From IMG/VR virus record IMGVR_UViG_3300028603_000034, positions 1-64,000 of that record: a stretch of DNA of 64,000 bases, one strand, 5' to 3'. Position numbers and translations under genes: made by a program. The notes beneath the pieces were generated by a model. It did no database searches and had not been told where the DNA came from. It was given only the letters and a program-made list of their open reading frames with translations. Of the stretch, positions 4,512 to 56,025 are shown piece after piece. This stretch comes from a virus. Lineage: Duplodnaviria; Caudoviricetes. How positions within the stretch are numbered: the stretch's first letter is position 1; each line of letters begins with the position of its first letter.

Positions 4512-4816
4512 TCGTGCAACCTTTCATATAAATATAACAAATCGTGTATTTTATTATTACCATAATTGATATTAGCATATACTATTGATTCTATGTTATT
4601 AGAACTTTCATAGAAAATTTCACGATAAATAGAATCGGATAAATTATCTAGTGACTGTATATTTTTTCGACCATATTCAAAAATTCTCTCTTTACAATCT
4701 TTACATCTGGTAATTAAGTCTTTATAATAATCAATATACGATACATCTGGCATTAGATATGGTGATTTGTGGTTCATATTTCGAGATATCATCTCTTGTG
4801 CTAATTCGTTGTGCAA
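4508..4816 (-). CDS. Hypothetical protein
   Basis: 102-aa ORF on the coding strand. Confidence 0.55.
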   Translation of the reverse strand: MHNELAQEMISRNMNHKSPYLMPDVSYIDYYKDLITRCKDCKERIFEYGRKNIQSLDNLSDSIYREIFYESSNNIESIVYANINYGNNKIHDLLYLYERLHE

Positions 4817-4955
4817 ATTTGCACAACAAGAAAAAATCTTCCTAATACAGAATATTTTTTAACAAAAACGTGATGGTGTTTGTGAATTTCACCGTGTTCT
4901 CCAATTAGATGTTTATTACAAAGACATAAAAGATTTACCATCCACATTCTCATAA

Positions 4956-5615
4956 TTAATAATTCTTATTTTTACAGTCATCACATTTCTTAACCAGCGA
5001 CAAGCCATAATTTATGATTTTTGTATAAGTCGCCACATAAGCCTCATCCGTCGCACGAGACGCACTAGCCACATCAGCCGCCGCATCAGCCGCCGCACAA
5101 GCTGCATCATAAGCCGCATCAGTCGCCGCACGAGCCGCCGCATCCGCCGCACGAACCGCCGCATCACGAGCCGCATAAGCCGCACGAGCCGACGCATAAG
5201 CAGCCTCAGCACGAGCCACACAAGCTGCTGCATGAGCAGCATGAGCATCATCCGCACAAGCATCATCCGCCACACGAGTTGCATAAACCAACTCATGAGC
5301 CACCGCAACATCTTTATTAGATAAATATTCTCGTGCTGTCTCGATTGCGTTCCGAGGCCGATTGTCATTTGGGTACTCTTTTTCAAAAATGTCAAGCACT
5401 AATTCAGCTGCAAAAATAGCGTAGCGAATTTTATCGTCGAGCGGCAAGACACGACTTAATAACCAGTTTGACCATCCAAACTTCTTATGCTCATCTGATG
5501 ATAGTAATTTTTCAATGGTTTCTTCAACTGAGTCAGGTTCTCCGTTCGAAGTGTACCACAGCATACCTTTATTGCAAGCTCCGTAATTCTCTAAAACCTG
5601 TTTTGTTAAAAACAT
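4956..5615 (-). CDS. Imm5-like domain protein with Ala-rich variable core, paralogue 1
   Basis: RYAIFAAELVLDIFEKEYPNDNRPRNAIETAREYL resembles the Imm5-like helical motif; flanks conserved with three neighbours. Confidence 0.7.
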   Translation of the reverse strand: MFLTKQVLENYGACNKGMLWYTSNGEPDSVEETIEKLLSSDEHKKFGWSNWLLSRVLPLDDKIRYAIFAAELVLDIFEKEYPNDNRPRNAIETAREYLSNKDVAVAHELVYATRVADDACADDAHAAHAAACVARAEAAYASARAAYAARDAAVRAADAAARAATDAAYDAACAAADAAADVASASRATDEAYVATYTKIINYGLSLVKKCDDCKNKNY

Positions 5616-5647
5616 TATTCCCCCTTGTTATGTTTTTGACTTCAATT

Positions 5648-6358
5648 TTAATCTTGTGGTTTGCAACAACAGTCATCACATTTCTTAACCAGTGACAAGC
5701 CGTAATTTATGATTTTTGTATAAGTCGACACATAAGCCTCATCAGCCGCACGAGCCACCTCACCCGCCACATTATCAGCATCATCAGCACGATCCTCATA
5801 AACTGCATAAACCGCATCAACCACTGCATAATACGCATAATCCGCCGCATTATCAGCATCATCAGCACAAGCAGCACGAGCCGCACGAGTTGCCTCACAA
5901 GCCGCACGATCCGCATAAGTCGCTGCATCAGCATAAGTCTCACGATCCGCATAAGCAGCCGCACGCTCTGCATAATCTGCATAACCCGCAGCAGTACCAT
6001 CTTTATTAGATAAATATTCTCGTGCTGACTTGATTGCGTTCCGTGGACGTTTATCTTCTGGAAACTCTTTTTCAAAAATGTCAAGCGCTAATTCCGCGGC
6101 AAAAATAGCGTATCGAATTTTATCGTCGAGCGGCAAGACACGACTTAGTAACCAGTTCGACCAGTCATGACTGGTCGAACTGCAGTTCGACCAGTCAAAC
6201 CTCTTCTCATGCCCGTTTAAGGCCAAAAGTTTAGCTTTTGGTGCCAAAAGTTTTTCAATAGTTTCTTCAACTGAGGCAGGTTCTCCGTTCGAAGTGTACC
6301 ACAGCATACCCCTATCGCAAGCTCTGTGATTCTCTAAAATCTGTTTTGTTAAAAGCAT
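5648..6358 (-). CDS. Imm5-like domain protein, paralogue 2
   Basis: Same N-terminus (MLLTKQILEN..C..GM.WY) and C-terminus (YTKIINYGLSL..KCD); different core. Confidence 0.7.
   Translation of the reverse strand: MLLTKQILENHRACDRGMLWYTSNGEPASVEETIEKLLAPKAKLLALNGHEKRFDWSNCSSTSHDWSNWLLSRVLPLDDKIRYAIFAAELALDIFEKEFPEDKRPRNAIKSAREYLSNKDGTAAGYADYAERAAAYADRETYADAATYADRAACEATRAARAACADDADNAADYAYYAVVDAVYAVYEDRADDADNVAGEVARAADEAYVSTYTKIINYGLSLVKKCDDCCCKPQD
6153..6197. repeat. Tandem inversion triplication (unit / reverse complement / unit) of a 15-bp sequence
   Basis: CAGTTCGACCAGTCA-TGACTGGTCGAACTG-CAGTTCGACCAGTCA; paralogue 4 has a single unit near 7741. Confidence 0.92.
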
Positions 6359-6420
6359 TATTTCTCCTTTTTAGGTTTGGGTTTATTGTTTGTAAAATCA
6401 GAACCATTAACTACATTATT

Positions 6421-6449
6421 AATATAATAAAACTTTGTGACATGTGCAA
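6421..6449 (-). promoter_or_regulatory. Promoter TTGCAC-N17-TATATT upstream of paralogue 2
   Basis: Same -10 and spacing as the early promoter family; duplicated at 7179-7207. Confidence 0.65.
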
Positions 6450-6474
6450 GAAAAAAATTACTTTGACTTCAATT

Positions 6475-7122
6475 TTAATCTTGTGTTTTGCAACAATGGA
6501 CATCACATTTCCCAATCAATGACAAACCATAATTTATGATTTTTGTATAAGCCACCGCATAATCCTCATCCGCCTCATCCGCCACACGAACCGCATCAGC
6601 CGCATAATCCGCCGCACAAGCTGCCGCATCAGCCGCCACATAATCCACATAATGCGCACAAGTCGTATAAGTCGCATCAGCCGCCGCACGAGCCACATAA
6701 GCAGCCGCATCACGAGCCGCATAAGCAGCCACATCAGCCGCATCACGAGCCGCTTCATAAGCCGCCTCATCAGCCGCACCAGCTGCATCATAAGCAGCAC
6801 CAGCAGCCGCCGCATCTTTATGCGATAAATAGACTCGCGTTGCCTCGATTGCGTTTCGCGGACGTTTGTCTTCTGGAAACTCTTTTTCAAAAATGTCAAG
6901 TACTAATTCAGCAGCAAAAATAGCGTACCTAATTTTATCATCTACCGGCAAGACACGACTTAGTAACCAGTTTGACCACTCAAACTTTTCACACTCATCT
7001 GAGTCCAAAAGTTTTTCAATGGTTTCTTCAACTGAGGCAGGTTCTCCGTTCGAAGTGTACCACAGCATACCTTCATAGCAAGCTCCGTAATTCTCTAAAA
7101 CCTGTTTTGTTAATTCCATCAT
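6475..7122 (-). CDS. Imm5-like domain protein, paralogue 3
   Basis: Conserved flanks; Ala/Asp/Tyr-rich variable core. Confidence 0.7.
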   Translation of the reverse strand: MMELTKQVLENYGACYEGMLWYTSNGEPASVEETIEKLLDSDECEKFEWSNWLLSRVLPVDDKIRYAIFAAELVLDIFEKEFPEDKRPRNAIEATRVYLSHKDAAAAGAAYDAAGAADEAAYEAARDAADVAAYAARDAAAYVARAAADATYTTCAHYVDYVAADAAACAADYAADAVRVADEADEDYAVAYTKIINYGLSLIGKCDVHCCKTQD

Positions 7123-7178
7123 TCCCTCTTTTTAGGTTTGGGTTTATTGTTTGTAAAATCATAACGCTAACAATACTA

Positions 7179-7207
7179 AATATAACACTTTTTTGTGACA
7201 TGTGCAA
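7179..7207 (-). promoter_or_regulatory. Promoter TTGCAC-N17-TATATT upstream of paralogue 3
   Basis: Copy of the intergenic unit at 6421-6449. Confidence 0.65.
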
Positions 7208-7232
7208 GAAAAAAATTACTTTGACTTTAATT

Positions 7233-7931
7233 TTAATCTTGTGTTTCGCAACAACGGTCATCACATTTCTCAATCAATGACAAGCCGTAATTTATGATTT
7301 TTGTATAAGTCACAACATAAGCCTCATCCGTCTCACGAGACGCACGAGCCGCATCACGAGCCGCAGCATAAACCGCATTCACCACCGCACAAGTCACCGC
7401 ATAATCCTCATCCGTCACACAAGCCGCACGAGCCGCATCACAAGCCGCACGAGCAGCATCACGAGCCGCACAAGCTGCCGCGCAAGCCGACGCATGACCC
7501 ACACGACCCACCACACGAGCCACCGTCACACAAACCGCACGAGCCGCACGATCCGCCGCCTCATTCACCTCATCCGCCACCACATCATCTTTATTCGATA
7601 AATATTCTCGTGCTGCCTCGATTGCGTTTCGCGGACGTTTGTCTTCTGGAAACTCTTTTTCAAAAATGTCAAGTACTAATTCAGCAGCAAAAATAGCGTA
7701 CCTAATTTTATCATCTACCGGTAAGACGTGACTTAGTAACCAGTTCGACCAGTCAAACCTCTTTGACCAGACAAATTTCTCATGCTCGTTTAAGGCCAAA
7801 AGTTTAGCTTTTGGTGCCAAAAGTTTTTCAATAGTTTCTTCAACAGATGCTGGTTCGTCGTTTGAGATGTACCAATACATACCCTCACCACAAGCTCCAT
7901 GATTCTCTAAAATCTGTTTTGTTAAAAGCAT
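7233..7931 (-). CDS. Imm5-like domain protein, paralogue 4 (likely start MLLTKQ at 7931)
   Basis: Conserved flanks; the ATG at 7931 aligns with the starts of the other paralogues. Confidence 0.7.
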   Translation of the reverse strand: MLLTKQILENHGACGEGMYWYISNDEPASVEETIEKLLAPKAKLLALNEHEKFVWSKRFDWSNWLLSHVLPVDDKIRYAIFAAELVLDIFEKEFPEDKRPRNAIEAAREYLSNKDDVVADEVNEAADRAARAVCVTVARVVGRVGHASACAAACAARDAARAACDAARAACVTDEDYAVTCAVVNAVYAAARDAARASRETDEAYVVTYTKIINYGLSLIEKCDDRCCETQD

Positions 7932-7987
7932 TTTTTTCCCACTCTTTTTTAAAGTTATACCCTCAATATAATTAATTATACTTAACC

Positions 7988-8647
7988 TCAAGATTCTGCA
8001 ATCAATCGGTTTTCATCAAATCCAGACATAAGAGAATGCGCCTCTTTGCAAGTCTTTGCTTCCCTTGGAGCAGACATATTATATGTTCTCTTAGTCGATC
8101 CATCTGAACCAATCAACCATTTCTGACCATTAGTATCTTCTACCAAAATCCTAGTAGCAGAACCATTAAGAGACAGAAAATCCATATCAAGAATTTTTGC
8201 ACCAGTATCAACAAGGTATTTAGATAGTCCATATCGTTCAATCATTATACGAGATACTTCAGCATATCCTTCCTGTTGTATCATATCAGTAGTAATTTTC
8301 TCAGGAGTCATTACAATTAATTTAGATACAATATGACCATCAATAGCATAAATCTCAAATCCATCTCTGTATCTAATAGCAGGTCCATCTTCACAATGAA
8401 CTTCACCATTATCATTCAAACTTATTTTTTCTGGTCTATCACAAATAACCGCAAACGTATCATATACATAATGGAATCCCGAATTGTCACAAAGTCTTTT
8501 CATAATATCAAGACCCTTACGTGCTTTGTCATCAATCTCCAATTTAAGAATATCGATATAATATTGATAAGTATAAATCCAAGTGACCAAAGGTGATAGG
8601 GTCACCAGAAAAAGCATAACACGCAACCATTTTAATTCTCCTAACAA
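7988..8647 (-). CDS. DUF6745-like phage protein
   Basis: CDRPEKI...HCEDGPAIRYRDGFEIYAIDG and DGST...Y...AP pattern typical of this phage family. Confidence 0.6.
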   Translation of the reverse strand: MLGELKWLRVMLFLVTLSPLVTWIYTYQYYIDILKLEIDDKARKGLDIMKRLCDNSGFHYVYDTFAVICDRPEKISLNDNGEVHCEDGPAIRYRDGFEIYAIDGHIVSKLIVMTPEKITTDMIQQEGYAEVSRIMIERYGLSKYLVDTGAKILDMDFLSLNGSATRILVEDTNGQKWLIGSDGSTKRTYNMSAPREAKTCKEAHSLMSGFDENRLIAES

Positions 8648-9942
8648 GATTTTAAGTTAATTACTGGAACAATTCTATTCAATATCTTTGCTGTTGGTTT
8701 AATTGCCTCTTCAATGATTGAAGAATCCTTATACGCATCCGGAGCTTCATCCAAAGTAGAAACACATACCGACGTTGAATATACATTCTTCATCTGTTCC
8801 TTAAAGGTTTCAAGATCGATGTTCTTCTTTGCCTTTGACCTGCTCATTATTCGTCCAGCACCGTGAGGAGCAGAATTGTTCCACTCTTCATTGGAATAAC
8901 CTTCACAAATCAATATACCATCCCTCATATTAAAAGGAAGAACAAATCTCTCACCAACATAAGACCGGATTGCTCCCTTACGAATAGTCATATCCTTAAA
9001 ATCAACGAAATTATGTTTTGTCTCAATCCAATCAATAGCATCAACATTTAGAATATCCAATATTATTTTTGCCATAACTCCTCGGTTGACATCAGCATAC
9101 TTCTGTGCAAATATCATATCAAAGAAATATCCTGAAGCCTCAGTACCTTCCAAATACTCCAATCCATTAATGTCAATTTTATAATTGTATTTTTCTTTGA
9201 TCTCCTTTATTTTGTTGTATAATTCCTTCCCCGAATAGGTAGACTTTGCTTCCTCGATCTCATTCAATTTATTATCTGAATGATTATTTTTAAACTTCTT
9301 AGTTGCAATGTTCTGCCAATATTCACATATACACTTACCAAAATTTCGAGAACCAGAATGAATAGTAATCCAATAATCTCCATTTAAGTCCTTCCCAATC
9401 TCAATGAAATGGTTTCCACCACCCAATGTACCAATACTTGTTATTGCTCGGTTTAATGATATGCCTATCTCTTTACACTTATTCTCAAACCAATACATTG
9501 AATAAGTAGGTGGAGAAATTTCTTTATTAAATTTCTCATTATATGCCATCATAAAATTATGAGCAGATGCTTTAACTTCTTTCCAAGGGAAATTGTTCTT
9601 TACATCAAATACTGATTTCTTATGGTAATTCATCCCCATTGGTATTTTAGAACGAATCTTTCTTTCCAAGTCCTCTTTTGACATTGGAAGTTCTTTACCA
9701 ATATTAAAAGATAATACTCCACAATTAATATCAACCCCAATAGTATTAGGAATTATCTTGTCTCCCATTGGCATTGATAGTCCTATTACCGCTCCCTTTC
9801 CTACATGACAATCTGGCATTATTGCAATGGGATTAGTGAAAGCAGGATGATTTATAAATGTAGTAATCTGCTTAATACACTCGGATTCTACATTATCGAT
9901 CATTATCTTTGCAGTAGTATATTTACCATTTAATTCTATCAT
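8641..9942 (-). CDS. rtcB: RtcB-family RNA 3'-5' ligase
   Basis: MPDCHVG, GVDINCG, GTLGGGNHFIE, IHSGSR, KHN, HGAGR and DEAPDAYK motifs. Confidence 0.95.
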   Translation of the reverse strand: MIELNGKYTTAKIMIDNVESECIKQITTFINHPAFTNPIAIMPDCHVGKGAVIGLSMPMGDKIIPNTIGVDINCGVLSFNIGKELPMSKEDLERKIRSKIPMGMNYHKKSVFDVKNNFPWKEVKASAHNFMMAYNEKFNKEISPPTYSMYWFENKCKEIGISLNRAITSIGTLGGGNHFIEIGKDLNGDYWITIHSGSRNFGKCICEYWQNIATKKFKNNHSDNKLNEIEEAKSTYSGKELYNKIKEIKEKYNYKIDINGLEYLEGTEASGYFFDMIFAQKYADVNRGVMAKIILDILNVDAIDWIETKHNFVDFKDMTIRKGAIRSYVGERFVLPFNMRDGILICEGYSNEEWNNSAPHGAGRIMSRSKAKKNIDLETFKEQMKNVYSTSVCVSTLDEAPDAYKDSSIIEEAIKPTAKILNRIVPVINLKSC

Positions 9943-10251: not shown

Positions 10252-11403
10252 CTAAATTGTTGATTTTAAATAATTTAGAAAATCTACATTTTCACACATG
10301 CCCTTACCAAGATCATTACTTAGTTTTGCAACAGGATTACCATTACATTCTACCATTTTCATTACATTTTGTAGTGGTGGAATCCCACAATCATTAGTGA
10401 AATTTGTTCCTACTCCAAAACTTACATTAATTTTATTGTAGAAATGTTTATGCAATTCAATTACCTTTGGTATATCTAACCCATCAGAAAATACTAAGTG
10501 TTTTGTTTTAGGGTTAATATTCATTCTTTTATAATGATCTATCATTGTTTCACCCCATTCAAAAGGACAGCCAGAGTCGTGACGTAATCCATCAAATAGT
10601 TTAGAAAAATATAAATCAAAGTCTTTCAAGAATTTATTTGTTCCCAATGTATCACTTAAAGCAATTCCTAAATCTCCTCTGTATTCTTGCACCCAAGATT
10701 CAAAAGCATAACTCTGACTGTCTTTCAATTGACATTTATTCAGTCCTTGAAATGCCATTACAAATTCATGTGCAAAAGTTCCAATCGGTTTTATCTTAAA
10801 TTCCATTGCAAAATGAACATCACTTGTTCCAATTACAACATTATTAGATATTAAATGATTAAGAATGAATCTATGAATATTATAACTGATACGTCTTCTT
10901 GCACCAAAATCGACAATAGTTGGATATTGTCCTGGATGTTCTTTTTCATACATTTCCAATAAATCAATTTTAGTATTTAATCTATTACTGATTTCTTCCA
11001 AATCAATTTTTTGATGTCGGAAATATACCTCTTGTACAATTGATAATACAAATATCTCAAAGAATATGGTATGTATCCAGGGACCTTCTACGGTAATATC
11101 CAATTTACCATCTTTATTTGTGATCTTAATAAAATCACGATTCAATTGGAATAACCTAAGAAATTCTACAAAATCCCTTTTAATAAACCTAATACCAGAT
11201 AAATATTTTAATTCTTTCTCAACAAATCTCAATGTACATAAATGATCAATCTCTTTTTCAATTTCTTCCTTGTATGGAAGCAGATCAATATCATTCCTAC
11301 ATTTAAACCTATACTTAACCCAAGTATCTGGAAATTGATGCAATACAACCTGTAACATAGTCAGTTTATATAAATCCTGATCTAATAACGATCTAATTAT
11401 CAT
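10252..11403 (-). CDS. pncB: Nicotinate phosphoribosyltransferase
   Basis: DLYKLTM, DFGARRR, GTFAHE, DTLGT, RHDSG, FSDGLD, FGVGT and KLSNDLGK motifs. Confidence 0.93.
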   Translation of the reverse strand: MIIRSLLDQDLYKLTMLQVVLHQFPDTWVKYRFKCRNDIDLLPYKEEIEKEIDHLCTLRFVEKELKYLSGIRFIKRDFVEFLRLFQLNRDFIKITNKDGKLDITVEGPWIHTIFFEIFVLSIVQEVYFRHQKIDLEEISNRLNTKIDLLEMYEKEHPGQYPTIVDFGARRRISYNIHRFILNHLISNNVVIGTSDVHFAMEFKIKPIGTFAHEFVMAFQGLNKCQLKDSQSYAFESWVQEYRGDLGIALSDTLGTNKFLKDFDLYFSKLFDGLRHDSGCPFEWGETMIDHYKRMNINPKTKHLVFSDGLDIPKVIELHKHFYNKINVSFGVGTNFTNDCGIPPLQNVMKMVECNGNPVAKLSNDLGKGMCENVDFLNYLKSTI

Positions 11404-11542
11404 ATCATAAACTCCTCATCTGCATTCATATTAATCCTCTTTTTTGATTAATTGTTTAAGTGTTCCCACATATCATCAATTTGTTTGCAAATATCATTGC
11501 TTTCTTAATTAATGCGTTCATTATCAAATCCTTTAAAATTAA

Positions 11543-12097
11543 TTATACTAAGAATCTTACGAATCGAACTCCTGCCCTTTTCATTTCATCAATAGCATTT
11601 TCTGTAGTAGTATCTTCAACACCCATTATGCCATCAGTAAAAACATAAGTATCAATGCCTAATTTCCTAAGACCTATTGCGTGTGCCTTTACACAATAAT
11701 CCGTTGCTACACCAGCAAGATAGACTTCTGTAATTCTGTTTTCTTTCAACCATCTAACAATATCTCGATTACCCAATGTAGGATCAAACACGTCATAACA
11801 TTTCTTATGAAATACCATTTCGTTTTCTTCGGGGAGTGCTTCTTTAATATTTTTTTGACCATCAGTATTCATCATACAATGGAATGGAAAAGGACCACCA
11901 TTTTTAATAAATTCAGGCTCACTTCCATCGTGATTATCTTGAGTAAAGTATACCGTTGTGTTACGTTCTCTACCAAATTTAATAATGTTATTAATCACAT
12001 TTTTAATCTTATCTGCACCAGGGACGTGCAATTTACCACCAACATTCATAAAATCATTTTGTGTATCAATAATTCCAATTACCGTTCTCATAATCAA
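11543..12097 (-). CDS. pncA: Nicotinamidase (isochorismatase family)
   Basis: IDTQNDF, TQDNH, FPFHC, catalytic K (FHKK) and GVATDYCV. Confidence 0.9.
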   Translation of the reverse strand: MIMRTVIGIIDTQNDFMNVGGKLHVPGADKIKNVINNIIKFGRERNTTVYFTQDNHDGSEPEFIKNGGPFPFHCMMNTDGQKNIKEALPEENEMVFHKKCYDVFDPTLGNRDIVRWLKENRITEVYLAGVATDYCVKAHAIGLRKLGIDTYVFTDGIMGVEDTTTENAIDEMKRAGVRFVRFLV

Positions 12098-15729: not shown

Positions 15730-16179
15730 CTACCCAATTCTTTCTTTTAATAATTTAGACAACACACTTTTATTTAAGATTCTACTATCAGTTTCAGTAA
15801 TTTCTTTAATTATTTTGCCCATTAATTTCATAGAGACTTCTTCTCCATTCCTCTCGATGTATTCATCTAACCAATTAGATAAATCAGATTCAGGAATTTC
15901 TTTTGGTGAAACAATGTCAATTAACTTCAATTGATGTTCCAATTCTAACAATTTATCAGTTTGTTTATTTGATTGTCTAACATATCCCATTTCTTCATTG
16001 ATTTTCTTTTTTTCTTTTTGAAAAATAGAAATTACAATTTCATCAGTAGGCGACTCAATTCTCTGTTCCATCACTACATTTTGAATCTGAGCATCTATAT
16101 ATCTAAAAAATGATACGGTTGATTTTTCACCACTTTTCATTGCGTTATTAATTGCAGTTTTAATAACAGTATATAACAT
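15730..16179 (-). CDS. GatB/YqeY domain protein
   Basis: AMKSGEK..., LE.QL.LI....PK...E..L and MK.MGKIIK pattern. Confidence 0.7.
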   Translation of the reverse strand: MLYTVIKTAINNAMKSGEKSTVSFFRYIDAQIQNVVMEQRIESPTDEIVISIFQKEKKKINEEMGYVRQSNKQTDKLLELEHQLKLIDIVSPKEIPESDLSNWLDEYIERNGEEVSMKLMGKIIKEITETDSRILNKSVLSKLLKERIG

Positions 16180-16633: not shown

Positions 16634-17033
16634 GTTCATAATGAACATATAACAACATTCTCGGATAGTATGTCTTTTATTTTGTTTCCAACTTCCTCCC
16701 AAGATAATTCCCCTGCACCACATCCTGGTTTACATATTTTTTCAATAAATATTTAAATCTTTATAATACATTCCTTTAGGAATTACGGAAACATCTTTCA
16801 TTACCAGTCCTCAACATTTGAGCTTGACAATGGTATATTTCAACATTAGTTAAGTTTAACTCTTCACCACACCCACATTTAACTTTAACAATACTTTGCC
16901 CTCTGTTCACAATCCAATTTAAATTCCATTATAGTTCCTTTAATTTTTAATTTTCTCATATACGTGGCAGACTTTTCCAGAATCATCATAAATAGGATAA
17001 TTAACATTATTTCCAAAATTAATATTCATGCTA

Positions 17034-17681
17034 TTACCTATTCTTATAGGTTTGTACTAATTTAGCAACTTCGTTCCTAAGACCTCTTTGTGGATGTGAA
17101 TATAGATTATATCGAAATACATCATATTCACCAAGAATATAATAATTTTGATCTACAAATCCAAATTTAAAAACCATTCTTGGAATTTCATTTAATACCG
17201 TATTAGTCCATTCTTCTGGTGTTTGATCATTTACCCTCGCTAAAATTTCTAATGCTTCGGGATTCTCTTCACAATATAATCTCATAGCATAAAATCCAGC
17301 AATAGATTGAAAAGTTTGTAACATTACAGCAGAAAATATTTGAGAATGTTCATATAATAATTCATCTCTATTTTGGTGAAACATTTGTTGATTTGCATAA
17401 ACATTAATAGCTTTTAAATATAAATTAATTTCAATTAACGTATCATTAACAACCCCATCCATAATAAAACCTTGATATGAATTATGAAGTCTGCCTCTTT
17501 GAACAAGATTGACTATTCGTTTAATAAAATCAAGTCCACCCATTTCTGTATTCATATATCGTTCTGTACCAGCAACATATATGTGAGAAGTTACATTTTC
17601 TCTTTGAGATATCTCTAACTGTTGAGAAAATGATTGTGTAAATAACACTAATGACATAATAAGAACCAAAATAAACTTCAT
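17034..17681 (-). CDS. Exported protein with signal peptide (likely start MKFILVL)
   Basis: Basic-hydrophobic N-terminus followed by a soluble domain; function unknown. Confidence 0.7.
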   Translation of the reverse strand: MKFILVLIMSLVLFTQSFSQQLEISQRENVTSHIYVAGTERYMNTEMGGLDFIKRIVNLVQRGRLHNSYQGFIMDGVVNDTLIEINLYLKAINVYANQQMFHQNRDELLYEHSQIFSAVMLQTFQSIAGFYAMRLYCEENPEALEILARVNDQTPEEWTNTVLNEIPRMVFKFGFVDQNYYILGEYDVFRYNLYSHPQRGLRNEVAKLVQTYKNR

Positions 17682-17746
17682 ACAAACAACCCCTTTCAAT
17701 TAATGAATAAATTAATTATCTCTTTTACCATAATGAATAACTTTTA
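17650..17746. repeat. 97-bp direct repeat, copy A (second copy of the ligase 3' end, intergenic region and signal-peptide start)
   Basis: Aligns without gaps to 20299-20395 with 6 mismatches by manual count. Confidence 0.92.
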
Positions 17747-17749
17747 TTA

Positions 17750-17958
17750 GTGAACTACCGATAAGCTAAAGACTTGTCGGCTTCCTAGTCAATATTCCTA
17801 ACGGAACAAGTTTACCTAGGCTATCTTCGTAGTACCTACGATTCTATTTCTCAAACCTTCGTTGAGTATGTTTATTGCAACATTTATAATCATCTCCTTT
17901 CTAAATTACACATTCATCCACTAGGCTGAAGACCTAGTGGATTTCTACTAGTGCACAT
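17750..17958 (-). mobile_element. Miniature non-autonomous IS200/IS605-family (tnpB) element
   Basis: Left-end 10-bp hairpin (17916-17942), RBS+ATG, deletion joining to the TnpB C-terminus AINILNEGLRNRIVGTTKIA*, then an omega-RNA-like right end ending GTAGTTCAC; TTTAA precedes the left end; left boundary approximate. Confidence 0.8.
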
Positions 17959-18027
17959 TTAAAAACTTTAATATTTCATTTTGTCCCCATTTCTTCAAAA
18001 TTATATATTTCCTACTTATTCATTACT

Positions 18028-18056
18028 AATATAATATATGGAAATATTGAAGTCAA
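18028..18056 (-). promoter_or_regulatory. Early promoter TTGACT-N17-TATATT
   Basis: Exact consensus; near-identical to 22629-22657. Confidence 0.8.
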
Positions 18057-18215
18057 TCATTATTTTTAATAGTTACATCGATTTATCTATTACTTTAAGC
18101 TATAAAATTTTAATTTCATAAAAATCTCTATCATTTAATGGCCATTATGTGCATCTATTAGATGATTTTCAATTTGTAGATTATGGACTGGGTTATTACA
18201 AGTTGTTTGTCTTTT

Positions 18216-19214
18216 TCATTTTTCATTTTTATTCTCCAAAAATATATGTGCCAATTGACCACAACATAAGCCCGCTTCTTCACATTTAGCAATAGCATCT
18301 ATTACTGTTGGAACTCCAATTTTATTAAAGTCGTTTCCTATTTTTTCTAATTCTTCATAATTAGTATAGTTTGCTAAAGTTTCTAAGTGTTTTGTTTGAG
18401 ATTTAATTGTATTATTAAGAGGAATTAATTTAACTTTAAATTTATCACCAGTTAGTCCCATTTTAGCAAGCTTATTAATATCTATTTCAATTCCTTTCAT
18501 AACAATAAAATTTAATGTTATTGTTCTGTTTGAAACATCTTTTTTGTTAATATACGAAACTATTTCTTCAATGGATAAAACATCAGCACCACCAAATAGT
18601 TGTTTTCTCATTATTTCATCTGTAGAATTACAAGAAATTTGAAAATGAAGAAATCCATCAAAAAAGTTTTCTTTAACGTCTATAATTTTGTCAATAATAT
18701 CAAATCCATTATTTCCTTCAATCTTTCTTGGAAGTATACTATTAAAGCATGGCAACCATTTAAAATCTCGATTCATTTCTTTAGATATATTTTTTAGATT
18801 TTTCATGGCACCAATAACATTTTTAATATTATGAGCTGGTTCTCCCATTCTAGCAAAACCGATTTTAACTTTATTTGACTTTGTAACATAAGGAGTATAT
18901 TGTAAAATTCTTTTGACTTGCGTTTCTATTTCATCTTGTGTTAAATTACCTTTAAATTTTAATTGAGTAACATCACAAAAATGACATTGATGGGCACATC
19001 CTTTTTGAGTAGAAACTGTAATTAGCCATTTATCTTCATATGGTTTTAAATGATTCCAAATAACATGAGGGTCTTGCGAATTACGAACGTCATAATGATT
19101 ATCGCCTTTTACATTCACATCTCTCATTTCAGTGCATTCTATTGGAAAACCATCTTCAGTTTCCAATAGAAACACACGACCACTTGGTAAATAAAAAGAA
19201 TTTTTAAATATCAT
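18216..19214 (-). CDS. RlmN/Cfr-like radical SAM RNA methyltransferase
   Basis: VSTQKGCAHQCHFC (CX3CX2C), GNLT..EI..QV, MGEP, VKLIPLN and C-terminal CCGQL. Confidence 0.8.
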   Translation of the reverse strand: MIFKNSFYLPSGRVFLLETEDGFPIECTEMRDVNVKGDNHYDVRNSQDPHVIWNHLKPYEDKWLITVSTQKGCAHQCHFCDVTQLKFKGNLTQDEIETQVKRILQYTPYVTKSNKVKIGFARMGEPAHNIKNVIGAMKNLKNISKEMNRDFKWLPCFNSILPRKIEGNNGFDIIDKIIDVKENFFDGFLHFQISCNSTDEIMRKQLFGGADVLSIEEIVSYINKKDVSNRTITLNFIVMKGIEIDINKLAKMGLTGDKFKVKLIPLNNTIKSQTKHLETLANYTNYEELEKIGNDFNKIGVPTVIDAIAKCEEAGLCCGQLAHIFLENKNEK

Positions 19215-19504
19215 TTGATCCACTCGCTTCTTTTAATTTAGTAAAAATTTCAGTACTAAACCAATCAGAATATTCATCTAAATTATCAGCATTAATAGTT
19301 TTAACTTCAATAATTTCACCACCATGGGTTGAAGTTTGATAAAAACATTTTCATTATAAAAAATTTTGTGTTTTGTTGTTCCATCTGTATGGCTTGACCA
19401 AGACCCAATAAATGTATTTCCAATGGCAGTTTTATACAAATCATTAACATTAACATCTTCATTTAATGAGTATATGGTTTTTTTAAATATTTTTGAAATG
19501 ACAT
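19211..19504 (-). pseudogene. Doubly frameshifted ORF (MSFQKYLKKTIYSLNE...EWIK)
   Basis: Continuous frame restored by +1 base in the T runs at 19478-19484 and 19348-19351; ATGA-coupled to the RlmN-like gene. Confidence 0.6.
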
Positions 19505-19506
19505 AA

Positions 19507-20130
19507 TTAGTCCTCCTTTGTTAAAAAATGGTTCCAAACTTCATTATTTGGCATATAGTAATAATTATAATCTTTTTGTTCAATATAATAATATTTTGAT
19601 TGTTTAATATAGTTTTCCAATTCTATAATTTCAGTAGTTTTATTTCCTAATAACTCTCTAAAGCTTAATTCATATTTATTATTAACTAATTTATTAATAT
19701 GAATGATTTTTTCTTTATTAAGATTCGTAGTAATAACAAAAACCAATCTTATAGGATTGGTTATTTTTTCAATTTCATTAAAACAAGCAATAAATTTATC
19801 ATAATTTAAATGTAACACAAGTTTATTAAAATATTTATATTTGTCCCAATTTGTATTGTCTAAAATTTTTGATGTGTGAATATCTATTTTTCCATTGTAA
19901 ATTTCAAATAATTTTTCAAACCACTTCCAATTTTTTTCTATTTCAAAAAAAGGATCGCCGCCGCCAGAAATACTAATTTTTTCATAATAAGAAACTAATT
20001 TTTTTAAATTCTTCCAATTGCAGTTTTCATAAGATGTAATTATATCTTTTAACGAATGGGGTTTCCATACACAATATTCACAACCCGTATCACAACCAAA
20101 ATTTGTTATAACGGAAAACCCTTTAACCAT
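19507..20130 (-). CDS. Small radical SAM protein
   Basis: NFGCDTGCEYC (CX3CX2C) and ISGGGDP. Confidence 0.85.
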   Translation of the reverse strand: MVKGFSVITNFGCDTGCEYCVWKPHSLKDIITSYENCNWKNLKKLVSYYEKISISGGGDPFFEIEKNWKWFEKLFEIYNGKIDIHTSKILDNTNWDKYKYFNKLVLHLNYDKFIACFNEIEKITNPIRLVFVITTNLNKEKIIHINKLVNNKYELSFRELLGNKTTEIIELENYIKQSKYYYIEQKDYNYYYMPNNEVWNHFLTKED

Positions 20131-20298
20131 TTATCTAACTCTTTCTTTGAAATATATATATACATAATTATTACGATATTCTTTTATTTCTTTTTTGGTT
20201 GTTTTTCCTCACTTAGTCCCCCAAGAAATATCCCACGAACGTTATTTATTAATTAAGGCCTTACTACGTCATCTCCCAAAGAATATGAGCACAGAACC

Positions 20299-20395
20299 AA
20301 TGACGTGATAAGAACCAAAATAAACTTCATACAAACAACCCCTTTCGATTAATGAATAAATTAATTATCTCTCTTACCCAAATGAATAACTTTTA
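20299..20395. repeat. 97-bp direct repeat, copy B (true ligase 3' end; the signal-peptide ORF here stops after 25 aa)
   Basis: See copy A. Confidence 0.92.
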
Positions 20396-21689
20396 CCGTT
20401 GGAAACCTTAATGATTTTTTTCCATTCTTGTCTTCAGTCTCCTCAAAATATTGAACCGTAATTTCATTACCTATAATTTCATTTGGATTTTCATAAAATC
20501 TTTTTCTTTCATCTAGTGAGAATCCAGAACCAATAGACAATCTGTTACCCTTATATTCTACAACAACATTAGTCATTGTTTCTATTTCACACTCTTTACC
20601 ATCTTCTACTACACGATACGGACCAACCTCAATATTCTGCACAACAAATTCCATATCGTTAAATTTCTTAACCTTTAAAAGATTTTTAGTTCTCTTACCC
20701 TCATATGGTGCTTCCAAATTCCTTAACATCAATCCTTCCCATTTTTTATCACTTGCAATTTTTACCCAATTCTCAAAATCTTCTTTAGAAGAAATTACGT
20801 TTTGTGTAACAAGATCAAAATTCTTAGGATTCTTTTCTGCTAATATTTTCAAAAATCCAAAACGAGTCATCCTTTTCATAATAGGAATACAAGAATGTTG
20901 CATATTAAATTCATCAATAAACAAACAATCAAATATTTTATATCTTGGATTAGGAATTGTAAAGTCTTTTCTCTTATATAACTTACTTATTTCTTTAAAA
21001 TCTTCATTACCATTTTCATCTACAATACAAAGTTCTCCATCCAAAACATAATTCACAATTCCTAATTTCTCTATTTTTTCTTTAAGAACTCCAAGTGTAG
21101 TAATCTCCCTACCTTTTCGGGTATAAAATGTTACCTCTCCACCAGAACCTATAACAGTAATACACCTCAACCCGTCAATTTTCTGAGTAACTCCCCATTT
21201 ACCATTGAAGAAATCCATACCTTTTTTATCTTTATAATCATCAAAGTTGTTTGCCAGAGCAACCTTAAATTCTGGAATTAATCCAGTATATACTTTATTA
21301 ACAAGAGAAGAATTAATTCCACACTTCAAATCCTTATCAATTATACGAAAAATAACATCTTCATATTCAGCATTCTTACTAATAAAACTATTTACTGCCC
21401 CAATAGCATCGTGACCTGTAACAATCCTACTTGACAACATATTAAGTAATTCAAAAAAATCATCTGTCAATGGATTGGTTAGATTTGAATTTTTCTTACA
21501 ATTGTCAGATGTTACATTATACCTAACTATATCAGTCAACGCTGCCCGTAACAAATCTTTATTTGTGTCACATTTATGACAATAGAATAAAATTATATCT
21601 TTTTTTTCATTTGTCTTAGATGTATTTTCCAATGCATCTAACATCATTTTAAATTCTTTAAACATGTGAACTCCTTTGATTATAATCAA
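20361..21689 (-). CDS. ATP-dependent DNA ligase
   Basis: QKIDGLRC (KxDG), LDGEL, EGLMLR, LLKVK, IGSGFS and SLRFP. Confidence 0.93.
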   Translation of the reverse strand: MIIIKGVHMFKEFKMMLDALENTSKTNEKKDIILFYCHKCDTNKDLLRAALTDIVRYNVTSDNCKKNSNLTNPLTDDFFELLNMLSSRIVTGHDAIGAVNSFISKNAEYEDVIFRIIDKDLKCGINSSLVNKVYTGLIPEFKVALANNFDDYKDKKGMDFFNGKWGVTQKIDGLRCITVIGSGGEVTFYTRKGREITTLGVLKEKIEKLGIVNYVLDGELCIVDENGNEDFKEISKLYKRKDFTIPNPRYKIFDCLFIDEFNMQHSCIPIMKRMTRFGFLKILAEKNPKNFDLVTQNVISSKEDFENWVKIASDKKWEGLMLRNLEAPYEGKRTKNLLKVKKFNDMEFVVQNIEVGPYRVVEDGKECEIETMTNVVVEYKGNRLSIGSGFSLDERKRFYENPNEIIGNEITVQYFEETEDKNGKKSLRFPTVKVIHLGKRDN

Positions 21690-29702: not shown

Positions 29703-30620
29703 TTATATAATATTAATTTTTAGTTTTGGTGCTTTCGACATAGCAATACCCAATACTCTATACTGATCAAGATATTCAATTTTATCTAATTTATCTATTT
29801 GTTTAGAACATTCCATATCCCAATATCTAAATTTAATATTTGGTATCTTGTTTGTTAAGTATTGCATTCTACGTATTTGATCTGATCTACTTTGAACTCT
29901 TGCAAAACCACCCCCCAAAGGATTAGAATAATCTAACAATTGTCCAACATTTGTTCTTTTTCGTTGTCTATCAAAAGTATTTTTTCGTTCATAATATAAA
30001 CTACCAATAGCATCAATTAATATAGTATTATCATTCTGATACCATCCCGAAACTTCAGCAGTTATTTTTGCTTCATCAAGAGGAAAATTATAATAACCAA
30101 TTCCACCATCACCCCAACATTTCATTCTAATATAATCTACATATTGACCAAAATATATAGGAGCAGCAAAACTTCTTGCTATTACATCTGCTAATCTCTC
30201 TTCTCCATCATCTTTATGCCAAGACTTAAAAAACCTATTCGTATTAGATACATAATCAACGGACAAGATCATTAAATTTGTCTTAACATCTTTCATTTTA
30301 AAATCTAATCCAATTAGTTTATCCCAAATGGTATAAAAATTTTCTCTGTTATAAATCGGAAGTTTTCTTGGGTCATACCATTTTTTCTTCGTAAAAACAA
30401 ATTTTGCCATCTCGGGCCAATAGTTATCTAATTCATTCATACTAACAAGTCCAGTTGCAATAATAGATGAATTAATAGAACCAACAGAATTAGAACATAT
30501 TAACTTATATTGTTTGTATAATGGACCATCTTCTAATTCTCTTAGTTTTAATACTTGAACTTGAGAATATCCCTTAACACCACCACCAGATAACACAAGT
30601 ATATTTGTATGTGTACCCAT
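29703..30620 (-). CDS. Patatin-like phospholipase
   Basis: LSGGGVKG, nucleophile SNSVG (variant of GxSxG), SFAAP.YF and DGG. Confidence 0.8.
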   Translation of the reverse strand: MGTHTNILVLSGGGVKGYSQVQVLKLRELEDGPLYKQYKLICSNSVGSINSSIIATGLVSMNELDNYWPEMAKFVFTKKKWYDPRKLPIYNRENFYTIWDKLIGLDFKMKDVKTNLMILSVDYVSNTNRFFKSWHKDDGEERLADVIARSFAAPIYFGQYVDYIRMKCWGDGGIGYYNFPLDEAKITAEVSGWYQNDNTILIDAIGSLYYERKNTFDRQRKRTNVGQLLDYSNPLGGGFARVQSRSDQIRRMQYLTNKIPNIKFRYWDMECSKQIDKLDKIEYLDQYRVLGIAMSKAPKLKINII

Positions 30621-31211: not shown

Positions 31212-32180
31212 CTACATGTGTCTCTTCATTTTTTCCCCTTTCATCAATCGTTTTAATTCCTGTAATTCCTTCATTACATCTGAAGCAGAAACATATTCAG
31301 TTGATTGTCTTTTAAGATCACTCTCACTACCATACCATTCCTCTACACAATCAAACAATAAATTATGTAATTGTTCTGTCTGGGGATGATTAGGAACAGC
31401 AACCGTATTATCCAATACCCATTTCTCCAATCCTCTTAATTTGTTAAATACGAAATTTTCAAATTCAGAAAAATCTTTGGTCCATTCCCCTCGTCTCATT
31501 GCTTTACACTCTTCTTTGTTCTTCATTAAATCTAAATCCCCGGTTTTTACTAATTGTTCACATAAGTCCAAAAGTCTTAACGGGTGATAATTCATTTTTA
31601 CATCCATACCATACTTCTCATATAATTCAACTCTATTATTATTCTCACAAGTACCTGTTTCTTCCCACCTCTTCTGAGCATTTTTCGACCTATTAACTTG
31701 TGCATAACAATAACCTTTCAGTGCGTGAAATGTTCTCATTGATAGAAATAATTTTCTGTTATCCCTCAGTACCCAAGTAACAGGAGTAGCAAAAGTAACT
31801 AAATTTCTTCTAACAAACAAAGTCTCTACCAATGATGGAGAGCCTTTAACTCCTGCAAGGTAAAAGAAATTAGTTAAAGCATTCCATTCACCCTCGACAT
31901 CTTTTCCATTAGGAAGAACTAATCTTAATTTTTCACCCTTACATTCTTTTGATTTAAATGAGGGCAATTGATCGAATCCCAAAACATAACCATAAGCTTG
32001 AGGAAATAAATGTTCGTGTTTAGGCATAACCAATCCAACTACGTCATAGTCAGAATCTTCGGTATTTGTACCGTATGCCTGAGAACCCATAACAACTTCC
32101 ATTAACAAATTATCTCTAATCCATTGTTCTTGTTCGTTAAATCTATGTTGTTTAAATAAATCTGTATATACCATTATCAA
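31212..32180 (-). CDS. DNA polymerase beta-superfamily nucleotidyltransferase (RlaP/YcgL-like)
   Basis: MGSQAYGTNTEDSDYD, P...E.LF and Y..K..YH..RL motifs. Confidence 0.8.
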   Translation of the reverse strand: MIMVYTDLFKQHRFNEQEQWIRDNLLMEVVMGSQAYGTNTEDSDYDVVGLVMPKHEHLFPQAYGYVLGFDQLPSFKSKECKGEKLRLVLPNGKDVEGEWNALTNFFYLAGVKGSPSLVETLFVRRNLVTFATPVTWVLRDNRKLFLSMRTFHALKGYCYAQVNRSKNAQKRWEETGTCENNNRVELYEKYGMDVKMNYHPLRLLDLCEQLVKTGDLDLMKNKEECKAMRRGEWTKDFSEFENFVFNKLRGLEKWVLDNTVAVPNHPQTEQLHNLLFDCVEEWYGSESDLKRQSTEYVSASDVMKELQELKRLMKGEKMKRHM

Positions 32181-55056: not shown

Positions 55057-56025
55057 TTATATAAATCCATCATATTTATTCATACAGTTGATACTACAAT
55101 ATTTGGTGCAATTAGTTATAATATTTTCATTTTTTTTATCATACCAAAAATCTTTTAATTCATCAAATGTATTAATTTTTTTCTTAATAATATTATGTGA
55201 ACACAAACTAATAGATATCTCACCCTCGTTATTTAATTGAATCAACTTATAATCACAATTATTAGGAAAAACATATCCACGTCTACGTTCTTTTGGTGAT
55301 AAAAAAGTTTGATTAGAAATATTAAAATATTCAAGTATATGATTTATTTTATCATTACACAAATAAGATTGATATCTATTTTTATAGGTATTTAATACTT
55401 CATTTAATTTATCAACATCTTTAATAAACAAATCAGAAAATTTAAATCTATTTATATCCGAATATTTAAAATTTGGTTCAATAACAGAAAATCTTGGAAA
55501 TATACCTAACTCATCACAAAAATCACAATAATCTATGAAATGATCCAAATTCTTAGATGACAATGATAAGTTAGTATGCACTTTGATATTTTCATCTAAT
55601 AAATGATTTATACTTTTAATTGCTAATGAATATGAATTTTTATTACCTCTTAATTTATTATGAACTTCTTCAATATGTGAATCTAATGATATGATAACAC
55701 ATTCAACCTTACCCTTTAATGATTTAGAAATTTCTTTATTTATCAATGTTCCATTACTAAACAATAAGAATTTTAATTTTTTCTCGAATACATAGTTAAT
55801 AATATTCATATAATTATTATTTAATAACGGTTCCCCACCGTGAAATAATACATAACCATCAGGATTCAATTTACTAAACCAATCAACTACTTTAAATATT
55901 TTATCATTAGACAATAATAATTTTTCATTTAATGTATGAATATCACAGTGTTTACATTTTAAATTACATTGATGTCCTATTGGAATCCACAAAATTTTAG
56001 GAGTATTCATATCAAATCCAATCAA
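55057..56025 (-). CDS. Radical SAM protein
   Basis: CNLKCKHC, GGEPLL, SNGTLI, ISLD and H..LRG; C-terminal Cys cluster. Confidence 0.88.
   Translation of the reverse strand: MIGFDMNTPKILWIPIGHQCNLKCKHCDIHTLNEKLLLSNDKIFKVVDWFSKLNPDGYVLFHGGEPLLNNNYMNIINYVFEKKLKFLLFSNGTLINKEISKSLKGKVECVIISLDSHIEEVHNKLRGNKNSYSLAIKSINHLLDENIKVHTNLSLSSKNLDHFIDYCDFCDELGIFPRFSVIEPNFKYSDINRFKFSDLFIKDVDKLNEVLNTYKNRYQSYLCNDKINHILEYFNISNQTFLSPKERRRGYVFPNNCDYKLIQLNNEGEISISLCSHNIIKKKINTFDELKDFWYDKKNENIITNCTKYCSINCMNKYDGFI

Follow-up and report, generated by a model that had tools for sequence, protein, structure and literature searches.

The virus record IMGVR_UViG_3300028603_000034 (Duplodnaviria; Caudoviricetes) carries a gene for a protein related to RlmN and Cfr, in which the cysteine that RlmN needs for release of its covalent intermediate is replaced by threonine, and the cysteine that carries the methyl group is kept. 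The stretch of DNA analysed, here called the window, is the first 64,000 nucleotides of this record, and the gene lies within it at 18216..19223 on the minus strand. The protein belongs to a large and strongly conserved family, mostly viral, which is homologous to RlmN and Cfr but does not belong with them, and its gene is almost always found next to a gene for a second, minimal radical S-adenosylmethionine (SAM) enzyme. We tentatively propose that the two genes form a phage accessory module, which would carry out RlmN-type one-carbon chemistry on a purine-like nucleotide or nucleobase, with another cysteine replacing the one that has been lost.

The RlmN-like gene is an intact open reading frame (ORF) with two possible starts. 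Translation from a GTG codon gives 335 residues, and translation from the ATG at 19214 gives 332 (18216..19214), which is the form held in public collections; residues are numbered throughout from the GTG start. The window makes up most of the record, which is 75 kb long and has a completeness of ~32% according to CheckV. It is AT-rich (G+C ~27%), and nearly all of its genes are on the minus strand. Phage and accessory genes recognised in it are an endolysin, an ATP-dependent DNA ligase, RtcB, RlaP and PncA/PncB. The endolysin, the ligase and other phage genes, together with the origin of the sequence in an IMG/VR virus record, make the phage origin of the RlmN-like gene sound.

The protein contains the motifs ITVSTQKG, running into C76AHQC80HFC83, then ARMGEP (MGEP at 126-129), KLIPLN (265-270) and, at the C-terminus, AGLC320C321GQL. 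Its score against the Pfam radical SAM model PF04055 is 26.0, slightly below the cut-off of 29.5; the CX3CX2C motif, a high-confidence structural model and 90 matches to radical SAM proteins in the PDB at E<=0.001 nevertheless place it in the radical SAM superfamily. It also matches PHROG 24834 (function unknown) with an E-value of 1e-28.

Class A radical SAM methylases use two conserved cysteines, one of which (Cys355 in E. coli RlmN) bears the methyl group and becomes crosslinked (PMC9692996). The other, Cys118, is indispensable for release, where it most likely serves as a base on the side of the adenine facing away from Cys355, and C118 variants of RlmN stay crosslinked to RNA (PMC9692996). 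The resolving cysteine stands seven residues ahead of the first cysteine of the cluster motif; in Cfr it is C105, and the methyl carrier is C338. A phmmer search against the PDB aligned residues 61-142 of the phage protein with residues 110-194 of E. coli RlmN (E ~2e-7), with Thr69 under Cys118 (ITVSTQ against LCVSSQ). The same correspondence was obtained when E. coli RlmN (from NC_000913) was added with MAFFT to a 133-sequence alignment of the family. In this residue map, giving the phage protein first, E29 corresponds to E105, T69 to C118, C76/80/83 to C125/129/132, M126-P129 to M178-P181, N270 to N312, C320 to A354 and C321 to C355. The methyl-carrying cysteine is thus present as Cys321, and its neighbour Cys320 takes the place of an alanine.

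A search of 5.8 billion proteins, with the window's own record left out, found 121 close relatives, which are 61-81% identical to the query. At the Cys118 position 119 of them have threonine and one has asparagine; in the remaining one the cluster motif was not found. All 121 end in an LCCGQ[LI] tail, here called the CC doublet. An Atlas look-up gave a viral share of 63-91% for the family's clusters. Judged from these alignments, the family genuinely and consistently lacks the canonical resolving cysteine, so that some other way of finishing the reaction would be needed.

Further cysteines are conserved. In a 58-sequence alignment of the family four of them, in addition to those of CX3CX2C, are invariant: Cys159 (in WLPCFN on β-strand 3, equivalent to RlmN Thr209), Cys314 (in AKCEEAG, six residues ahead of the CC doublet, equivalent to RlmN Arg347), Cys320 and Cys321. 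The last three give the tail a CX5CC pattern. A cysteine at the position of Cys159 is also found in many other relatives that lack Cys118, and in none of the RlmN and Cfr sequences in the tree described below.

The original prediction for this gene, which was made by a model from the sequence alone, had described it as a phage-encoded RlmN/Cfr-like RNA methyltransferase with an altered set of catalytic cysteines. The phage origin, the three motifs CX3CX2C, MGEP and CGQL, and the threonine at the Cys118 position are all borne out, and alignment gives no other cysteine at that position. The extra cysteine beside the carrier is likewise real and, as seen above, universal among the close relatives; the list was however incomplete, as Cys159 and Cys314 are also invariant.

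The match to the RlmN model TIGR00048 covers residues 36-324 with E=1.8e-19, which means that the likeness to RlmN is not due to chance. Its score is 69.9 bits against a curated cut-off of 290. Against a second RlmN model, NF008396, the score is 52.4 bits (cut-off 633), and against the Cfr models TIGR04432 and NF000424 it is 42-44 bits (cut-offs 468-550). The hidden Markov model match to TIGR00048 begins only at position 76 of 355: the N-terminal helical (HhH2-like) domain of RlmN is absent, and more than 55 residues of it have no counterpart in the alignment. The AlphaFold2 model of the protein has a predicted local distance difference test score (pLDDT) of 94.6, and its top PDB matches in Foldseek are the RlmN-type structures 6FZ6, 3RFA and 5HR7 (E 1e-14 to 2e-13, template modelling (TM) score ~0.65), followed by Cfr (E 7e-8) and then by generic radical SAM folds.

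A tree of 98 rows was made with a quick IQ-TREE search, supports being values of the Shimodaira-Hasegawa-like approximate likelihood ratio test (SH-aLRT) only. The rows comprised the phage family and 150 representatives from an exhaustive search of 1.8 billion proteins, filtered for sufficient length around the cluster motif and with fusion proteins trimmed to the radical SAM domain. Reference rows were RlmN of E. coli and Parabacteroides, Cfr, Cfr(C), Cfr(D) and a Variovorax 'RNA methyltransferase'. All of the rows that have Cys118, together with RlmN and the three Cfr sequences, form one clade of 18 rows (SH-aLRT 99). The phage protein is found in a separate clade of 37 rows (SH-aLRT 99), which has a sister clade of 35 rows. 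Not one row in these two clades has a cysteine at the 118 position, where Thr, Ile, Asn, Asp, Val, Ala, Gly and Ser are found instead, and most rows of both keep the equivalent of Cys355. The loss of Cys118 is therefore an old trait of the clade as a whole and no quirk of a single phage.

With scores below both sets of cut-offs, no N-terminal domain and a position outside the RlmN and Cfr clade, the protein is a homologue of RlmN and Cfr and not a member of either. The relationship proposed originally thus stands, both by sequence and by fold; the label RNA methyltransferase is too specific. Some sources make a similar assignment, mis-annotating family members as 23S rRNA (adenine2503-C2)-methyltransferase. 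In the literature, no publication was found on phage RlmN-like enzymes that lack Cys118, either fused or in the split form described below.

The next gene upstream (19507..20130, minus strand) encodes a protein of 207 residues, which is a minimal radical SAM protein and is here called the partner. Its motifs are C13-x3-C17-x2-C20, SISGGGDP, HT and DYNxYY, and it matches PHROG 17662 (function unknown) with E 7e-27. The structural model (pLDDT 95.9) is a bare and generic radical SAM core, whose nearest structures in Foldseek are viperin-like proteins (with the highest TM score, 0.71), SuiB, EpeE, anSME, MoaA and QueE. There is no NCBIfam match, and no curated family claims the partner. A profile of it searched against the PDB gave a weak match to MoaA alone (E 0.008), and a search of the Atlas gave generic radical SAM cores. 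In these four comparisons no sign was found that the partner is a canonical QueE, NrdG or PflA.

It is striking how consistently the two genes are found together. Using a profile of the family, 63 viral loci with an RlmN-like gene were gathered; this alignment-based scan of viral contigs worked, whereas queries with single proteins gave nothing useful. In 58 of the 63 a partner-family gene lies next to the RlmN-like gene and on its strand, the distance between the two ranging from -87 to +387 nt. The two genes occur in either order and frequently overlap, and they adjoin each other in every long contig examined. The five remaining loci include two that are cut by contig ends, two in which the RlmN-like gene is truncated, and one intact CC-type locus (L128), where a partner is missing within 5 kb. 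Because many of the 42 loci at ~43% identity are near-duplicates, fewer than 63 of these observations are independent. The pairing covers two sequence groups, which are 50-70% and ~43% identical to the query and which both have the CC doublet, and overall the doublet and the partner co-occur across the range of 43-81% identity.

In another kind of phage relative the enzyme is split in two. The CGQ motif is missing from the core protein and is found on an ORF just downstream of it in 69 of 80 such loci (L029-L108); in the examples inspected this ORF encodes a peptide of ~40 residues, ending in AACGQLA and close in sequence to the fused tail. None of the 80 loci has a partner-family gene within 4 kb, and the pairing is therefore specific to the CC-type family.

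The group at ~43% identity, which has the sequence 'TAISTQYG...LCCGNL', has a further ORF of 142 residues between the partner and the RlmN-like gene (L130-L171, about 4553-4984). It matches PHROG 1238, labelled phosphoheptose isomerase, and contains a DxDxT-like motif, FDFDNT. On this motif it could be read as a HAD phosphatase, which is unconfirmed, there being no Pfam match and no meaningful match in the PDB.

More distant relatives in the clades that lack Cys118 are found in genome and metagenome assemblies as fusions with other domains, of three kinds. In one kind of nearest cellular relative, a transporter part of the ECF-S/QueT-like type, the radical SAM domain and a methylthioadenosine/S-adenosylhomocysteine (MTA/SAH) nucleosidase are joined in one protein (P0146, P0152, P0153 and P0193, the last at L019 6001-8445). 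Others are fused with a thioredoxin reductase-like (TrxR-like) flavoprotein, which also occurs as the product of an adjacent gene (P0170, P0204, L020/L021), or with an isochorismatase domain (P0148, P0169). A relative that is 41% identical, and is nested in the phage clade, has an aminotransferase gene on one side and a glycosyltransferase-like gene on the other. In a 289-kb jumbo phage the RlmN-like and partner pair is followed by a QueD/PTPS-type gene. In another locus (L013) a related radical SAM gene lies beside Rnl1 and PTH2, and distant solo homologues occur in tRNA-rich phages, for example Pectobacterium phage Arno18.

The QueT-like fusions prompted the idea that the queuine lyase QueL might belong to the clade. 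This lead was dropped, as no link was shown by the one item compared, the InterPro signature IPR006638 of C. difficile QueL (Q186P0), which is a generic one of Elp3/MiaB/NifB type and not that of the RlmN family. It may be added that the related gene in L013 is also close to genes for NAPRTase, a NUDIX protein, NAD kinase and PRPP synthetase. In a 199-kb phage that has the module, a fused DAHP synthase-chorismate mutase and a U32-peptidase-like protein are encoded a few genes downstream (L003/L004, 13710-16434), a pair which we take to recall the enzymes of prephenate-dependent RNA hydroxylation.

On the basis of these observations, we hypothesise that the RlmN-like gene is one half of a self-contained two-enzyme module, which comes from a large and uncharacterised sister clade of RlmN and Cfr. 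This is the explanation that we favour, and it is held with reserve: the analysis establishes the homology, the fold, the conservation of motifs, the placement in the tree and the pairing of the genes, and the chemistry, the class of substrate and the releasing residue are inferred. As in RlmN, one SAM would donate a methyl group to Cys321 on the tail. Cleavage of another SAM would give the 5'-deoxyadenosyl radical, and the resulting cysteine-bound methylene radical would attack an sp2 carbon in a purine-like ring. Release of the covalent intermediate would then depend not on a cysteine on β-1 but on another of the invariant thiols. The enzyme would thus probably finish its reaction in a new way, and the different resolution chemistry suggested in the original prediction is very likely, given the conserved absence of the canonical cysteine.

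The first candidate for the releasing residue is Cys159, which is on β-3 and is predicted to point into the barrel; Cys314 and Cys320 on the tail are alternatives. The extra cysteine of the CC doublet is a candidate for the replacement of Cys118, but not the sole one and probably not the best, since it is in the same loop as Cys321 and so appears poorly placed for a role that in RlmN is performed from the opposite face of the base (PMC9692996). Cys159 seems better suited, because it projects from a strand of the barrel as Cys118 does, and because it recurs in other relatives that lack Cys118.

We think it more likely that the substrate is a small molecule of nucleotide, nucleoside or nucleobase type, or a base that is reached in a different way from that used by RlmN, than that it is 23S A2503 or tRNA A37. 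The missing N-terminal domain, the isoelectric point (pI), which has a family median of 6.45 against 7.9-9.6 for four RlmN representatives, and the fusions and neighbours of the relatives all point away from RNA binding of the RlmN kind. The fold of the partner, which is nearest to nucleotide-using cores (viperin-like, MoaA and QueE) and peptide-modifying ones, counts in the same direction. MTA/SAH nucleosidase degrades SAH and 5'-deoxyadenosine, both of which are by-products of a class A methylase that uses two molecules of SAM. The nucleosidase fusion would therefore be in keeping with an enzyme that has retained methyl-synthase chemistry and applies it to a small molecule that is imported. 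The partner may catalyse a further step in the conversion of this substrate, or it may act on the tail itself. None of the present results shows that host rRNA or tRNA is modified, as had been proposed, and several lines point instead to nucleotide-like or small-molecule substrates; nor do they suggest a function in antibiotic resistance.

A wider version of this proposal starts from the sister clade as a whole, dominated by phages, which would have dispensed with the supposedly indispensable second cysteine. The subfamily described here would perform class A one-carbon radical chemistry with either a new releasing residue or a tail modified by the partner, and would make a so far unknown modified purine nucleotide or nucleic-acid base that is used in infection, for instance against host defences. 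We regard this as possible, though on balance doubtful.

Several points weigh against our preferred explanation. It is only the position on its strand that would set Cys159 above Cys314 and Cys320, and pI is a weak indicator. The relatives with informative fusions and neighbours are only 28-41% identical, and the CC family has no such fusions, so that what they suggest may not transfer to it. The sole characterised homologues, RlmN and Cfr, act on RNA. Genes for RNA repair are often found in the phages that have the module: the window itself contains RtcB (8641-9942) and RlaP (31212-32180), RtcB is 2 kb away from the module in L005, RlaP is present in L007, and in L013 there are the Rnl1 and PTH2 genes already noted. 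Finally, conservation as high as 60-80% identity between unrelated phages is also what a universal site in RNA would lead one to expect.

These points lead to the most serious of the rival explanations, namely that the enzyme is a C-methylase of bases in RNA (or DNA), which would use RlmN-type chemistry and a substitute thiol to methylate an adenine carbon in tRNA, rRNA or DNA of the host or phage. Access to the nucleic acid would have to be gained in the absence of the N-terminal domain, possibly with the aid of the partner, and the role of the enzyme might be to shield RNA from anticodon nucleases or to re-tune translation. Beyond the arguments already given, it has in its favour that the equivalents of the active-site residues are kept, that distant solo homologues are found in tRNA-rich phages, and that so extreme a sequence conservation suits an invariant macromolecular target. 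Against it are the loss of the N-terminal helical domain, a pI that is near neutral or acidic in the family, and the position outside the RlmN and Cfr clade. The window was found to contain no genes for tRNA, those for RNA repair show no tight linkage to the module, and the fusions in relatives are of a small-molecule type. We therefore consider this explanation rather unlikely, but still a serious rival; in our view a nucleotide-like substrate is more likely than an RNA target.

A more radical alternative is that the protein is not a methyl synthase. Cys159, Cys314, Cys320 and Cys321 might together bind an auxiliary Fe-S cluster, or the partner might modify the tail after translation, and the reaction would be of another radical kind, such as sulfur insertion, hydrogen-atom chemistry or that of a lyase. 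In this way one could account for the four cysteines that are invariant apart from those of CX3CX2C, of which three belong to the CX5CC tail. The partner is a nearly constant companion, and its fold is close to the cores of peptide-modifying enzymes (SuiB, EpeE and anSME) as well as to nucleotide enzymes. Of the two forms of the idea, the sequence comparisons favour modification of the tail by the partner over a second cluster, because the CC doublet and the partner co-occur and the split relatives with a single cysteine (AACGQL) have no partner. An ancestral cluster with four cysteine ligands is argued against by the fact that most relatives that lack Cys118 have a single Cys355 equivalent. 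The intact CC-type locus L128, which has no partner within 5 kb, also speaks against the alternative, and the CGQ context of the methyl-carrying cysteine is exactly as in RlmN and Cfr. This alternative is accordingly judged improbable.

The original prediction had also raised the possibility of a covalent RNA trap, that is, a single-turnover enzyme in which the adduct on the methylene of Cys321 is the end state and which acts stoichiometrically, for example to block or tag host RNA. The behaviour of the C118 variants of RlmN (PMC9692996; PDB 5HR7) provides a precedent, and the complete absence of cysteine at position 118 from the sister clade would agree with it. In the split relatives trapping would be done by the separate tail peptide, which could conceivably be a detachable carrier of the adduct. 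However, there are three further invariant cysteines near or on the tail (Cys159, Cys314 and Cys320), as expected if the thiol chemistry is completed with a replacement for Cys118. In the sister group TrxR-like reductases occur as fusion partners or neighbours, which speaks for redox recycling and hence for turnover, and the MTA/SAH nucleosidase fusions suggest that by-products are removed over repeated turnovers. A covalent trap is thus not favoured, and we consider it quite improbable. The last explanation, an ordinary RlmN or Cfr orthologue that makes 2-methyladenosine or 8-methyladenosine at 23S A2503 or tRNA A37 with another cysteine in the role of Cys118, agrees with the automatic annotation of some members and with RlmN as the best match of both sequence model and structure, but it can be all but dismissed, the scores being far under the cut-offs for TIGR00048 and Cfr, the placement outside the RlmN and Cfr clade being strongly supported, the N-terminal domain being missing, and a neighbouring partner gene being unknown for RlmN and Cfr.

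The two radical SAM genes lie in a block of 2.65 kb that is bracketed by a direct repeat. Copy A (17647..17746) repeats the 3' end of the ligase gene, the spacer that follows it and the initial codons of the downstream gene, which encodes a protein with a signal peptide. It is 100 nt long with sharp borders and is 93% identical to copy B (20296..20395). Since the repeat duplicates the end of the ligase gene and the start of the gene downstream of it, the block looks like an inserted accessory cassette, which could be lost by recombination. A search with the ligase for related phages that do not have the insert gave distant loci only, at 31-33% identity. Between the two radical SAM genes there is a remnant of a small gene (19215..19506, minus strand), which is homologous to an intact ORF of 95 residues in a locus whose RlmN-like protein is 80% identical (L027:7714-8001). 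The intact counterpart has no family match. The remnant reads in three frames, with two frame changes, and the pieces found by tblastn are 57% and 41% identical to the counterpart; this could be due either to decay or to a homopolymer error in the assembly.

Searches around the module gave little else. An Rfam scan of 17000-20600 produced a single match, which is below threshold, and the PADLOC models of defence systems gave nothing meaningful. Other genes of the window are also of note. PncB (NAPRTase) lies side by side with a PncA-like gene of the isochorismatase family at 10252-12097 (minus), the two forming a pair for deamidating NAD salvage. A small GatB/YqeY-like protein is encoded at 15730-16179 (minus); with the RtcB ligase and the RlaP-type nucleotidyltransferase, whose genes are likewise on the minus strand, it makes up a set related to RNA repair and tRNA. 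At 4956-7991 (minus) there are four tandem paralogous ORFs of 219, 236, 215 and 252 residues, which have weak matches to Imm5-like immunity proteins and occupy a stretch of higher G+C (39-43% against ~27%), of which the window has no other. They are adjoined by a DUF6745 gene (7988-8647) and by RtcB. A patatin-like phospholipase gene is found at 29703-30620 (minus). The window has a third radical SAM gene, which is unrelated to the module; it encodes 322 residues, matches PF04055 at 62.5 bits and PHROG 1802, and overlaps a gene for a family-2 glycosyltransferase of 399 residues, both being within 55057-57221 (minus).

The recurrence of the module in accessory regions, together with genes for NAD salvage, RNA repair and anti-restriction, hints at a possible role in the conflict between phage and host. 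The wider interest lies in the fact that a pair of conserved cysteines defines the class A radical SAM methylases, and that removal of Cys118 in the laboratory traps RlmN on its RNA. Here is a large, strongly conserved and mostly viral family that has lost this residue in nature and has kept the methyl-carrier tail. Should turnover occur, the family would show that the release step can be solved in a second way, and probably also that class A chemistry extends to a new class of substrate. The almost constant presence of the minimal partner enzyme delimits a compact two-gene module. The family is widespread in phages and should be of interest both to radical SAM enzymologists and to phage biologists.

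It is worth comparing the protein with three systems that it resembles. The split phage enzymes, with a core of ~265 residues and a separate peptide of ~40 residues ending in AACGQL, are also phage-borne, are found among the relatives without Cys118 (having glycine in the split core), and have a similar tail pattern (...AIATKAEIENGAACGQLA in the split type and ...AIAKCEEAGLCCGQLA in the RlmN-like protein). They differ in that the RlmN-like protein has a fused tail, the CC doublet together with Cys314, and a partner radical SAM gene. Cfr, the C8-methyltransferase of 23S rRNA A2503 (PDB 9P0P), shares the class A architecture and the motif of the cysteine tail, which in Cfr is AACGQL. However, it retains the resolving cysteine (FCISSQ), its match is weaker than that of RlmN, and the three Cfr sequences nest within the RlmN clade, far from the phage family.

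The best match, by both sequence and fold, is RlmN (TIGR00048; PDB 3RFA, 4PL1 and 5HR7, and the RlmN-like 6FZ6), which is a dual-specificity C2-methyl synthase of 23S rRNA A2503 and tRNA A37. The two have in common a radical SAM barrel with extra β-strands, an xVSxQxG strand ahead of CX3CX2C, the MGEP motif for SAM, equivalents of Glu105 and of LIPxN, and a mobile C-terminal tail that bears the CGQ cysteine (Cys355 in RlmN). Unlike RlmN, the phage protein has Thr69 in place of Cys118, no N-terminal helical domain and the additional invariant cysteines Cys159, Cys314 and Cys320. It has an insertion of 20 residues ahead of β-1, and RMGEP where RlmN has GMGEP. Identity in the structural alignment is just 16-18%, and the protein belongs to a separate clade and has a second radical SAM gene as its neighbour.

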